From: Rhizobium sp. Q54
Lineage (GTDB): Bacteria; Pseudomonadota; Alphaproteobacteria; Rickettsiales; UBA1997
DNA: 31,714 nt
NCBI GenBank assembly: GCA_945865855.1
Contig: CAMBES010000001.1
Span: forward strand, 1-31,714
Direction: 5' to 3'
A model generated the notes under the pieces. That model was not told the DNA's origin, ran no database searches, and saw nothing but the letters and a program-made list of their open reading frames with translations. Shown piece by piece: positions 21,707-26,218 of this stretch (its first letter is position 1; each line of letters opens with the position of its first letter). Position numbers and translations under genes: made by a program.

Positions 21707-22420
21707 TTAGCCGACTCCAATTTCTCTTAAGAACGCCTTGTCTAAGCTATCTTCTTCATGCTTATTCTTAAAGCCTTGCGGGCTGCCGCAATAGACGATT
21801 TGAGCGTTGTTTAAAATCGCAATCGAGTCGCAAATCTCATCCATGTCGGACAAAATATGCGAGCTGAAAAAAATAGTTTTGCCGGAATTTTTGTAGGCGA
21901 TTAGTTCGCGCTTCAAGGCAATGCGCGCCTTTGGATCGAGTCCAGACATGGGCTCATCTAAAATTACTAAATCAGCTTCCGACAAAAAAACAGCGAGAAG
22001 CCCAAGTTTTTGCGTCATTCCTTTTGAATATTTGCTAACTTTTTGCTTCAGCATTTCGAATTTCAGATCGAGATTTTCGCAAAGTTCTTGCGCCTTTGCG
22101 GCGTTATATTTTTTGCCGTAAAAATCCAAAACGAACTGCAAAAATTCTTCACCTTTTTGATGAATTGACGGATGAAATTTTTCTGGCAAATAACAAACGC
22201 GCTTACGGGCTTCTGGCAGGATGCGCGACACGCCAAAAATCTCAACTTCACCGTGATCCTGATCGAGCAAATCTAAAATAATTTTGATCAGAGTGGTTTT
22301 GCCCTGCCCGTTCAAACCGATGAAGCCAAAAATTTCATTTGGTTTTACTTCAAAACTAACCTTGTCGAGCACGGGCTGTGCAAATACTTTGGAGATTTCA
22401 GAAATTTTTAGAGGAAGCAT
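21707..22420 (-). CDS. ABC transporter ATP-binding protein (ABC-2 exporter type); no permease in the window
   Basis: GLNGQGKTT Walker A, YSKGM signature, LVILDEP Walker B, SSH switch. Confidence 0.92.
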   Translation of the reverse strand: MLPLKISEISKVFAQPVLDKVSFEVKPNEIFGFIGLNGQGKTTLIKIILDLLDQDHGEVEIFGVSRILPEARKRVCYLPEKFHPSIHQKGEEFLQFVLDFYGKKYNAAKAQELCENLDLKFEMLKQKVSKYSKGMTQKLGLLAVFLSEADLVILDEPMSGLDPKARIALKRELIAYKNSGKTIFFSSHILSDMDEICDSIAILNNAQIVYCGSPQGFKNKHEEDSLDKAFLREIGVG

Positions 22421-22471
22421 TTTAGAAAAAATTTTTAATTCGGTAATTCAGTTTTTTAGTTTGGTAATTCT

Positions 22472-23007
22472 GTCATCCCCGCGAAGGCGGGGACCCAGAA
22501 TAAAAAACTCGGAGTGAGTTATGAGATCTCCTGGATCCCCGCCTTCGCGGGGATGACGCAAGAAGATGAGAAATAACCGCGTCAACTAACTCACTCAAGT
22601 AAAAATGTTGACGAAATTCTTCACGCTAATTCACTCATCCCCGCTAAGGCGGAGATCAATGGTAATTCAGTCATCCCCGCGAAGGCGGGGATCCAGAATA
22701 AAAACTTGTAGTGAGTTGTGAGAGCTCCTGGATCCCCGCCTTCGCGGGGATGACGCAAGAAGATCAAAAATAACCGCGCCAACTAATTCGAATGTTGACG
22801 GAATTCTTCACGCTAATTCAGTCATTCCAGCGAAGGCGGGGATGACGCAAGAAGAACAGAAATAAACGCGTCAACTAACTCACTCAAGTAAGAATTTTGA
22901 CGAAATTCTTCACGGTAATTCGGTCATCCTCGCGAAGGCGGGGATCCAGAATAAAAACTTGGAGTGAGTTGTGAGATCTCCTGGGTCCCCGCCTTCGCGG
23001 GGATGAC
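22472..23007. repeat. BIME-like mosaic array of REP doublets separated by copies of an aroQ fragment
   Basis: Full doublets at 22472-22557, 22670-22754 and 22923-23007. Degenerate half at 22634-22658; collapsed doublet at 22821-22846. aroQ-like spacers at 22569-22627, 22766-22814 and 22858-22916. Confidence 0.95.
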
Positions 23008-23035
23008 GCAAAAATTAACTCAGTGATCCGCGAGC

Positions 23036-23467
23036 TTAAATCATGTTGTTAATCGCCAGCAGTGCGATTGAGTAACCTTGCACTCCAAGACCAGAAATAA
23101 CCGCGTCAACTACCCCACTCAAGTAAGAATGTTGACGAAATTCTTCGCGCTTAAAAATGTTAGAAATGTGTAACTCAATTTTTGGCTTATTGAACATTTC
23201 TAAAGCATCACGAATCGCCACTGAAGTGTGGGTGTAAGCGGCGGCATTAATGATTATTCCGTCACAATCATCCAAAGCATTTTGAATTGAATCGACTAGC
23301 TCGCCTTCATTATTTGACTGCTGAAAATCAATTTTAATTTCGAGCTCTTTCGCTAATTTTTCGCAATCGGCAGAAATTTTATTCAACGAATAATCGCCGT
23401 AAATACTGTGGTCGCGCCTGTGCAGCAGATTTAAATTCGGACCATTTAGAATTAGAATTTTTTTCAT
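23036..23467 (-). CDS. aroQ: Type II 3-dehydroquinate dehydratase
   Basis: LNGPNLNLL, QSNNEGEL, INAAAYTHTSVAIRDA, ELHISNIFKREEFRQHS. Confidence 0.96.
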   Translation of the reverse strand: MKKILILNGPNLNLLHRRDHSIYGDYSLNKISADCEKLAKELEIKIDFQQSNNEGELVDSIQNALDDCDGIIINAAAYTHTSVAIRDALEMFNKPKIELHISNIFKREEFRQHSYLSGVVDAVISGLGVQGYSIALLAINNMI

Positions 23468-24243: not shown

Positions 24244-24319
24244 TTTGATTTTTGATTTTTGATTTTTGATCTGGAGTATTCATCAGCCTAAATCTCAAAT
24301 CTCAAATCAAAAATCAAAA
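24243..24319. repeat. Inverted pair of 7-nt tandem repeats filling the pssA/tkt divergent spacer
   Basis: About four TTTTTGA units (24243-24270), a 17-nt loop, then AAATCTC x2 and AAATCAA x2 (24290-24319). The arms pair at 25/30 positions by hand alignment. Confidence 0.88.
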
Positions 24320-24322
24320 GTA

Positions 24323-26218
24323 ATGTCAAAACTAGATCTTGCGAACTGCCTTCGCTTTTTGTCAATTGATGCTGTCGAACGCGCGAATTCTGGACACCCA
24401 GGAATGCCAATGGGAATGGCTGATGTTGCTACAATTCTTTTCACTGAGTTTCTTAAATTCGACGCGAAAAATCCAAAATGGTTAAATCGCGATCGTTTTG
24501 TTCTCTCTGCTGGGCACGGCTCAATGCTACTTTATTCACTACTTCATTTGACTGGTTACGAAGACGTAACGATCGAAGATTTAAGAAATTTCCGCCAACT
24601 TGGCGCTAAATGCGCAGGCCATCCCGAGCACGGACATCTCGCCGGAATTGAAACCACAACTGGTCCACTTGGCCAAGGAATTGCCACTGCTGTTGGCTTC
24701 GCAATCGCCGAAAGAATGGCTGAGGCAGACCACAAAACTTACGCCCTCGTTGGCGATGGATGTTTAATGGAGGGCATTTCGCAAGAAGCAATTTCGCTCG
24801 CCGGACACTTGAATCTAAGCAAGCTCGTCGTTCTTTGGGATAATAATTCAATTTCAATCGACGGAAAAACTTCGCTCACAACTTCTGAAAATATGAAGAT
24901 GCGTTTTGAATCTTGTGGCTTTGACGTAATCCAAATTGACGGCCACAATTTCGACGAAATACGCACCGCTTTACAAAAAGCTCAAAGCGCCACGCGCCCT
25001 ACTCTTATCGATTGCAAAACTACGATTGGTTTTGGCTCGCCCGCAAAAGCTGGAACAGAAAAATGTCACGGCTCACCACTTGGTGCCGAAGAAGTTAAGA
25101 AGACGAGAGAAGCTCTTGGTTGGAATTACGAACCGTTTTTCATTCCAGAAAATTTACGCAACGAATGGCTAAAAGCCGGCACCCGCACCAAATCCTCCAA
25201 CTCAATTCCGCCGGTTGAGCGCAGTCGAAACCAAGGAACCTTCGACTCACTTCCGCCGGTTGAGCGCAGTCGAAACCAAGCCACCCGTAAATCCTCCCAA
25301 CAAGTTCTTGAATTTTTGACCGGAAACCTACCAAACCTAGTCGGCGGATCCGCAGATTTAACCGGCTCTGTTCTCACCAAAACCTCGCACACAAAACCAA
25401 TTAACAAAGACGATTTTTCTGGTCGCTACATTCACTACGGCGTACGCGAACACGCAATGGGCGCAGTAATGAACGGCATTGCGCTTCACAGCGATTTCAT
25501 TCCTTACGGTGGAACATTTCTAGTTTTTGCTGACTACATGAAACCAGCAATTCGCCTCGCCGCACTAATGCAGCAGCAGCTGATTTACATTTTCACTCAC
25601 GATTCAATCGGTCTTGGAGAAGACGGCCCAACGCACCAAGCAATCGAACATTTAGCAATGTTGCGTGGAATTCCTAATCTCAATGTTTTGCGCCCGGCAG
25701 ATTCTGAAGAAACTTGGCAATGTTTTGAAATGGCTCTCGCGGCAAAAAAAACTCCCTCAGCAATGATTTTAACAAGACAAGATTTGCCATTTTTAGTAAA
25801 AGAAAAAAGCCACGAGGGTAAAAGTCTAGCCAACCGCGGCGGATACGCGCTTAACAATGTTTTAAATCCCGAAGTTGTAATCATTGCAACTGGCTCAGAA
25901 GTTTCGATTGCGGTTGAGGCAAAAGAAAAATTGCAAGCAAAAGGAATCAATGCCCGCGTGGTTTCAATGCCGTGTTTTGAAATTTTCGAAGAGCAAGACG
26001 AAGCTTACAAAAATGAAGTTTTGGGCGCAAAAAATATTTTACGCGTCGGTGTTGAAGCTGCAATTTCACAGGGCTGGGAAAAATATCTCGGCTTCGACGG
26101 AATTTTTGTTGGAATGAAATCTTTCGGCGCTTCCGGAAAAGCAGAAGATTTGTACAAGCATTTTGGAATTACTTCTGACGCAATTTGTGAACAAGTCGTA
26201 AAAAAATTGCGCGGCTAA
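24323..26218 (+). CDS. tkt: Transketolase (housekeeping, single chain)
   Basis: SGHPG, RDRFVLSAGH, TTGPLGQG, GDGCLMEG, YGVREHAM, THDSIGLGEDGPTHQ. Start moved to ATG 24323 because the track extension runs through the tandem repeats. Confidence 0.96.
   Translation: MSKLDLANCLRFLSIDAVERANSGHPGMPMGMADVATILFTEFLKFDAKNPKWLNRDRFVLSAGHGSMLLYSLLHLTGYEDVTIEDLRNFRQLGAKCAGHPEHGHLAGIETTTGPLGQGIATAVGFAIAERMAEADHKTYALVGDGCLMEGISQEAISLAGHLNLSKLVVLWDNNSISIDGKTSLTTSENMKMRFESCGFDVIQIDGHNFDEIRTALQKAQSATRPTLIDCKTTIGFGSPAKAGTEKCHGSPLGAEEVKKTREALGWNYEPFFIPENLRNEWLKAGTRTKSSNSIPPVERSRNQGTFDSLPPVERSRNQATRKSSQQVLEFLTGNLPNLVGGSADLTGSVLTKTSHTKPINKDDFSGRYIHYGVREHAMGAVMNGIALHSDFIPYGGTFLVFADYMKPAIRLAALMQQQLIYIFTHDSIGLGEDGPTHQAIEHLAMLRGIPNLNVLRPADSEETWQCFEMALAAKKTPSAMILTRQDLPFLVKEKSHEGKSLANRGGYALNNVLNPEVVIIATGSEVSIAVEAKEKLQAKGINARVVSMPCFEIFEEQDEAYKNEVLGAKNILRVGVEAAISQGWEKYLGFDGIFVGMKSFGASGKAEDLYKHFGITSDAICEQVVKKLRG
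25201..25280 (+). repeat. Two direct REP-like hairpin units in frame within tkt
   Basis: TTCCGCCGGTTGAGCGCAGTCGAAACCAAG occurs at 25206-25235 and 25251-25280 (30/30, period 45). Encodes PPVERSRNQ twice. Confidence 0.88.

Follow-up and report, generated by a model that had tools for sequence, protein, structure and literature searches.

A copy-number-variable tandem cluster of REP dimers and aroQ fragments in a lake-water Rickettsiales-like lineage

In Escherichia coli, BIMEs are clusters of alternating REPs that lie between co-transcribed genes, with linkers that are conserved motifs reused genome-wide, and in enterobacteria REPs act as join points for tandem duplications. Microhomology-mediated tandem duplication and slipped-strand deletion are general replication-error mechanisms. 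Some gene-capturing transposons copy host DNA along with the element.

Pseudomonas fluorescens SBW25 has 16 ordered REPIN clusters, which are tandem repeats of REPINs including their flanks (Bertels & Rainey 2011, PMC3116915). These clusters contain up to four REPINs plus an extra REP, extend over 700 bp and led to the inference of a second, non-transpositional mechanism (PMC3116915). REPs of the CGTC-1 family, to which the Rickettsia RPE-6 and Neisseria dRS3 types belong, are typical of Alphaproteobacteria (Rickettsia among them) and occur mostly as inverted dimers without an associated transposase gene (Di Nocera et al. 2013, PMC3733652).

The ordered tandem clusters of SBW25 (PMC3116915) are the closest known case to the array described here, which lies between aroQ and an ABC transporter gene and also consists of tandem REPINs repeated with their flanks. 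It differs from them in having a CGTC-type REP, for which no RAYT was found, in that one flank was drawn from the interior of the adjacent coding gene and not from contiguous DNA, and in its variation from 0 to 4 copies in the natural population. With the CGTC-1 family it shares the tag, stem, loop and CCA tail, the inverted dimers, an alphaproteobacterial host and the absence of a linked transposase, but grouped elements are rare in that family (PMC3733652), whereas here they form a large ordered cluster. A preliminary description of this DNA regarded spacers taken from an adjacent gene as unknown, which overlooks the ordered REPIN clusters in which flanking DNA is repeated (PMC3116915). Literature searches on REPs in connection with tandem duplication, template switching and gene fragments gave no direct precedent beyond these two reports (PMC3116915, PMC3733652).

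The REP array and its aroQ fragments

The window analysed (31,714 bp) is the whole of contig C1 from a genome of 1.19 Mb in 128 contigs, 84% complete and with 40% G+C. The runs that hold its sequence are lake-water metagenomes. aroQ is full length, covering positions 1-137 of the 138 of the PF01220 profile, and is separated by 615 bp from the ABC ATPase gene (Table 1). The closest species outside the species cluster (G007) has an aroQ that is 91% identical.

A 27-nt palindrome (GTCATCCCCGCGAAGGCGGGGATCCAG) occurs eight times in the 615-bp spacer, in three inverted pairs, as one solo copy and as one collapsed hairpin. These repeats form units of 166, 151 and 102 bp, 86 to 92% alike, followed by a terminal REPIN, so that near-identical flank-REPIN-flank units follow each other head to tail as in an ordered tandem REPIN cluster. 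The last TAATTC(N) of the REPIN left flank is duplicated along with every unit. The 17 nt of the right flank also follow the last REPIN, ahead of the aroQ stop, in four other alleles (L016, L131, L129 and L116). The 9-nt deletion in the native spacer of the window (Table 1) was judged against L016, L019, L131 and L116.

Table 1. Features of the aroQ-ABC locus (positions in the window)
Feature	Position	Strand	Evidence or remark
ABC transporter ATPase gene	21707..22420	-	PF00005, 82.5 bits; downstream partner of aroQ
REPIN native left flank	22436..22471	+	Repeated GGTAATTCAGT motif inside
REPIN 1, two inverted CGTC-type REPs	22472..22557	.	27-nt arms, 96% complementary
Copy of REPIN native right flank, GCAAGAAGAT-AGAAAT	22558..22574	+	Ends in junction repeat common to aroQ
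aroQ fragment copy 1, codons R107-S125, non-coding relic	22569..22627	-	55/59 versus 23093-23151
36-bp solo-REP unit: left flank plus one REP hairpin (REP 22635-22657)	22628..22663	+	Tandem-repeat unit
REPIN 2	22670..22754	.	27-nt arms, 100% complementary, 31 nt apart
aroQ fragment copy 2, 10-nt internal deletion	22766..22814	-	Alignment
Collapsed REPIN, single hairpin between GTCAT and ATGAC	22821..22843	.	Sequence
aroQ fragment copy 3	22858..22916	-	53/59 versus 23093-23151
REPIN 3, adjoins aroQ	22923..23007	.	Inverted pair
Native spacer, REPIN to aroQ stop	23008..23035	+	9-nt deletion in window versus most alleles
aroQ, intact type II 3-dehydroquinate dehydratase	23036..23467	-	PF01220, 185.9 bits
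Source segment in aroQ	23091..23152	-	CAGAAAT 23091-23097 is the left-junction repeat; right junction after GCT 23150-23152

The core GTCATCCCCGCGAAGGCGGGGATCCAG, searched for genome-wide with at most 3 mismatches, gave 61 matches against 0 for the reversed control. Most copies in the genome are paired in inverted orientation at a distance of about 70 bp, and the loop between them differs from locus to locus. An inverted pair folds, as single-stranded DNA, into one long hairpin (-37.2 kcal/mol, z = -8.9 for REPIN 1), as is characteristic of a REPIN. Each REP has the anatomy ATCCCCGC-GAAG-GCGGGGAT followed by CCA(G), that is, an 8-bp stem starting A-T, a 4-nt loop and a CCA tail. A terminal unpaired CGTC tag (or TGTC/CCTC) is present, with cGTCAT before the stem in most of 64 genome copies; in the array the right arms keep GCGTCAT and the left arms read a/t/gGTCAT. 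In its tag, its stem, loop and tail, its prevalence of inverted dimers and its lack of an adjacent transposase gene the repeat agrees with the published family description (PMC3733652). It is a CGTC-tagged REP of the CGTC-1 family, and its inverted pairs are REPIN-like.

A second palindromic family, with core GGTTGAGCGAAGTCGAAACC, is represented by about 65 cores (at most 3 mismatches) in the same genome. It too occurs in inverted pairs and local tandem duplications, for example at G000:C4:8300-8420, C29:11180-11250 and C83:3890-4000.

The three spacers between the REPs had been recognized in the preliminary description as copies of part of aroQ, in the orientation of that gene. Its hand counts of identity for copies 1 and 3 were reproduced exactly (BLAST E = 1e-18 and 7e-17, respectively), alignment of copy 2 to aroQ 23093-23151 returned the 10-nt internal gap, and all three copies lie on aroQ's own strand. 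Within its own genome (1.19 Mb, 84% complete) the spacer sequence is present at the aroQ locus only. Across the 43 genus genomes searched the fragment is likewise confined to the aroQ-ABC locus: G035 and G048, which represent two other GTDB species of the genus, carry fragments there, and the other 40 gave matches only via their own aroQ or short weak hits that were not inspected. In contrast to the linkers of E. coli BIMEs, which recur at many loci, the spacer is derived from the adjacent gene and is confined to one locus in the own genome and the 43 genus genomes. A candidate second genomic site, in contig C14 of G035, proved to be the ABC-proximal part of this locus, broken off where the contig ends. 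Contigs C14 and C116 of G035 both cover the aroQ-ABC locus with different array alleles, which indicates that this bin mixes strains.

Fragment and REP sequence together produce spurious minus-strand ORFs of 41 and 53 aa (22473-22598 and 22621-22782), the first of which includes the peptide SSPRRRGS. Small ORFs have been called in the aroQ-ABC spacer of other assemblies too, for example one of 53 aa in L119.

Repeats of this kind exceed typical k-mer length, and several contigs from other samples break within the array, so an assembly artefact of a short-read MAG had to be weighed. It is extremely improbable. Diagnostic SNPs and indels tell the units apart, and three other assemblies (L014, L015 and L018) differ from the window at 1 of the 1001 positions of 22300-23300 and give the identical 3-copy structure, so that the misassembly which the preliminary description named as a threat to its reading was not borne out. 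Related alleles with 1, 2 and 4 copies and the same junctions come from assemblies of different projects. Logan unitigs of run X1 cover the array from end to end and bridge every unique junction, at a depth (about 8-13) like that of the flanks. Of the Logan contigs, which attest presence and not absence, those of X6 contained fragment copy 1 and no other, and those of X3 and X4 the flanks with no fragment sequence. Two exact-pattern scans of JGI metagenome contigs gave no match, which carries no information because JGI contigs from the protein look-up contain the locus.

Variation within the species cluster and across the genus

Alleles of the locus were gathered from contigs encoding the window aroQ protein or variants at least 98% identical to it; several projects contributed to the 20 additional public contigs obtained, all within one species cluster. 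Between aroQ and the ABC gene these alleles have 213 to 814 bp with 0 to 4 fragment copies, and all of them come from short-read metagenome assemblies, in which repeat copy numbers may be collapsed or chimeric between co-occurring strains. The copy-number variation predicted from the window is thus present. No fragment copy occurs in L131, one in L016, L112, L116, L117, L118, L121, L124 and L129, two in L017, L113, L114 and L115, three in the window, L014, L015 and L018, and four in L128. The simplest one-copy allele is that of L124, which reads REPIN-fragment-REPIN.

Other parts of the array vary as well. The 36-bp solo-REP unit does so independently, from 1 to 4 tandem copies (one in the window, four in L016), and L117 has an extra copy of a left-flank repeat of about 21 nt. 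Fragment copy 2 with its 10-nt deletion recurs in L017 and L128, and in L128 the collapsed REPIN hairpin is duplicated.

The fragments resemble older states of aroQ. Their synonymous sites match the window lineage and not G007, indicating that the founding event was recent. At codon 118 (23114-23116) the window aroQ has GGG (Gly) and relatives have GAA or GAT; as these encode Glu or Asp, Gly in the window is the derived state. Conspecific aroQ genes have mostly GAA and in some cases GAG (L131, L129 and L116), and most fragments have GAG. At position 23147 both G and A are found among aroQ alleles, with A in all fragments. The preliminary description had argued from substitutions shared by the copies. 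That argument is wrong in part: the GAG codon and CACG also occur in the aroQ of other strains, and not every fragment copy has the remaining change, GTA to TTA. Copies in L122 and L017 lack it, perhaps through an early branching or through gene conversion. Indels of 10, 5 and 1 nt in the fragments show that they are under no coding constraint.

Codon 118 encodes Glu or Asp in all 11 genus relatives examined and Glu in 9 of 12 conspecific protein variants. The likely path from GAA through GAG to GGG is visible among the population alleles.

A neighbouring gene, tkt (transketolase, 24266-26218), also differs in length. It was called at 600, 608, 631, 636, 646, 661, 665 and 705 aa across conspecific assemblies (loci L014, L015, L113, L114, L117, L119, L120 and L128). 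The window tkt contains the in-frame tandem peptide PPVERSRNQ twice, derived from the second REP family, which suggests that an in-frame REP insert varies in copy number within one species.

The order aroQ then ABC is kept in 9 of 11 genus loci, and at the unexpanded loci only 10-30 bp separate the two genes. G001 (locus L003) has a single REPIN of the same family at the same site, with similar loop and flanks, and from this resemblance REPIN 3 of the window appears to be orthologous to it. In G007 the aroQ-ABC spacer holds an unrelated palindromic insert. Throughout the genus, the junction between aroQ and the ABC gene is a hotspot for insertions. Fragments of aroQ were not found in the expanded spacers of G007, G014, G008 and G011.

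The inserts at this junction are diverse. That of G007 (L002 1126-1500) is an element of 375 bp whose terminal inverted repeats read GGACCCCGC...GCGGGGTCC and which has tandem repeats about 50 bp long in its interior. G014 (L005 750-1500) has a small ORF, GIY-YIG-like by eye, between hairpin repeats and a 25-bp tandem repeat, and in G008 and G011 (L006 and L004) small genes of about 600 bp are inserted.

Origin of the repeated unit

The same two junctions recur in all of the approximately 30 fragment copies of 20 alleles, which is evidence of one founding event. It is clear that the preliminary description was right about the direction, from aroQ to the array, and about a single founding event, after which a unit of REP plus fragment, about 165 bp long, was amplified. 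On the left, 17 nt that read GCAAGAAGATCAGAAAT, with minor variation, come before every fragment and are the native right flank of the aroQ-side REPIN; beside aroQ itself this flank is intact in most alleles and has lost 9 nt in the window. The junction falls within the 7-nt direct repeat CAGAAAT, which aroQ also possesses. At the right junction aroQ ends after GCT and is followed by AATTCAGTCAT, which is the REPIN native left flank plus the REPIN start, with microhomology of only 1-3 nt. The repeated unit consists of a REPIN, both its native flanks and 53-60 nt of aroQ, and the piece absent from it is the stretch between two CAGAAAT repeats, comprising the 28-37-bp spacer and the last 19 aroQ codons.

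A reading of the captured segment as a REP-like hairpin in its own right was rejected. Its 7-bp stem is real, but the folding z scores (-1.6, -0.4 and -0.6) are no better than those of shuffles, the stem is lost in some copies and the junctions are not at CGTC motifs.

A REPIN that keeps both flanks and is joined at a 7-nt direct repeat would point to a local segmental duplication trimmed by slipped deletion, or to two template switches. To judge from the junction sequences, this combination is a probable signature of duplication plus slippage; a transposing REPIN is not expected to bring along its old flanks. The likeness to microhomology-mediated duplication and slippage, from which we infer such a process here, extends to the short matches at both junctions and the hairpin-rich DNA.

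The array is a tandem cluster of CGTC-type REP dimers, hypervariable and similar to a minisatellite, and it probably arose through duplication and slippage together with unequal recombination. How replication or recombination proceeded, and in which order, is read from the junctions as follows. The starting point would be an old single REPIN lying 28-37 bp past the end of aroQ. The ancestor of the species cluster would then have undergone a single local rearrangement to REPIN-fragment-REPIN, by either of two routes. A tandem duplication of about 250 bp, from the REPIN left flank into aroQ, may have come first, with the duplicated aroQ tail then lost from the non-functional copy through a slipped deletion from one CAGAAAT repeat to the other. 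Alternatively, two microhomology-guided template switches may have taken place at a fork stalled by hairpins; template switching at hairpins, one of the alternatives in the preliminary description, is compatible with the junctions. As no intermediate allele with a duplicated aroQ tail was found among the alleles examined, the two-step and one-step routes are indistinguishable. The shortness of the microhomology at the right junction, 1-3 nt, also counts against this history. Subsequently the REPIN-plus-fragment unit of about 165 bp and, separately, the 36-bp solo-REP unit would have expanded and contracted between near-identical REPINs, by unequal recombination or slippage, to give the 0-4 fragment copies of present populations. 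The fragments would be freely decaying non-coding relics, and no transposase would be needed.

Further tandem duplications of a REP with its flank were found in the same genome by self-comparison and inspection, on contigs C38, C41, C46, C70, C81 and C29. On C70 (G000:C70:2430-2619) the last 19 nt of dxr (PF02670) are duplicated with the adjacent REP, and on C29 (G000:C29:11098-11437) the last 61 nt of an ATP-grasp gene are duplicated with the second REP family, so other REP arrays do carry the ends of their own neighbours, as the preliminary description had asked of them. Both are small-scale counterparts of the aroQ array. The aroQ array is therefore the most elaborate product of a general tendency and not of a special capture.

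Copying of host DNA by a REP-processing enzyme (a RAYT-like HUH nuclease or other) that cut or read into aroQ and carried the piece along with the REPIN, as proposed in the preliminary description, is improbable. REP ends do bound the fragment on both sides, Y1_Tnp genes are present in 12 of 20 genus genomes and, at 84% completeness of the own genome, an enzyme specific to the REP could have escaped assembly. Against this, no match to the Y1_Tnp profile in that genome lay above the Pfam cut-off (the best PF01797 match, at 21.3 bits, was within a 1279-aa frame), eight genus Y1 genes inspected had no REP of the array family within about 1.5 kb, and a REP-flanked single-copy RAYT, as in REPIN-RAYT systems, was not found in the own genome (84% complete) or 20 genus genomes. 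CGTC REPs are, moreover, reported without a dedicated transposase (PMC3733652). The units have native REPIN flanks on both sides and are joined at the 7-nt direct repeat, not at the CGTC tag. Nor was the unit found at any site other than the aroQ locus in the 43 genus genomes, whereas a gene-capturing element would be expected to move its piece to new loci; matches outside aroQ all lie in the aroQ-ABC spacer. It is very improbable that the unit is the footprint of an enzyme that moves CGTC-type REPs and occasionally reads through or mis-cuts into adjacent host DNA. If it were, the locus and its 0-4-copy variation would provide a handle on the spread of transposase-less CGTC REPs and of Rickettsia-type palindromic elements. 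A larger, older duplicate of the aroQ 3' half that decayed, with REPINs later inserted independently on both sides, is also unlikely. It would suit an insertion hotspot that has received different elements in G001, G007, G014, G008 and G011, but each REPIN brings the same 17-nt right and 7-10-nt left flank, which independent insertions would not do, and no other aroQ-derived sequence exists in any allele.

Selection for the array as a regulatory element of the aroQ-ABC transcript, with mRNA-stabilising or attenuating hairpins and the fragments kept as spacers, would account for its place between co-oriented genes that were ancestrally about 10-30 bp apart, for the very stable folding of the REPINs and for the retention of at least one unit in nearly all alleles. 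This reading of the sequence is nevertheless distinctly unlikely, since copy number and spacer length (213-814 bp) vary freely and a 0-copy allele exists, the fragments gather indels, a scan of 22300-23200 for promoter-like or terminator-like sites found none, and sister species manage with 11-32 bp or unrelated inserts. The free copy number, the 0-copy allele and the tight junctions or unrelated inserts of sister species suggest instead that the fragments are neutral passengers with no indicated function. The REPINs themselves may have a putative effect on mRNA stability or read-through, and the persistence of 1-4 copies in nearly all alleles could hint at some benefit.

Consequences of the array

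Recombination between a fragment and aroQ would delete the 3' end of the gene, an outcome that the preliminary description had considered; no allele with such a deletion was found among those gathered. A 156-aa member of the protein cluster was considered as an aroQ-fragment recombinant and rejected, as it has only an N-terminal start-codon extension.

For annotators the locus is a caution, as the fragments yield small false ORFs and tblastn matches. It reveals no new capture mechanism. What it offers is a clear case from nature in which hairpin repeats have made a close-set operon junction into a rapidly evolving minisatellite, with part of the adjacent gene drawn into it. Preserved in the relic copies are states of aroQ that survive as alleles in other strains, and these copies date the event to within one species cluster. 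The locus could be used as a strain-typing marker (VNTR) for this uncultured freshwater Rickettsiales-like lineage.
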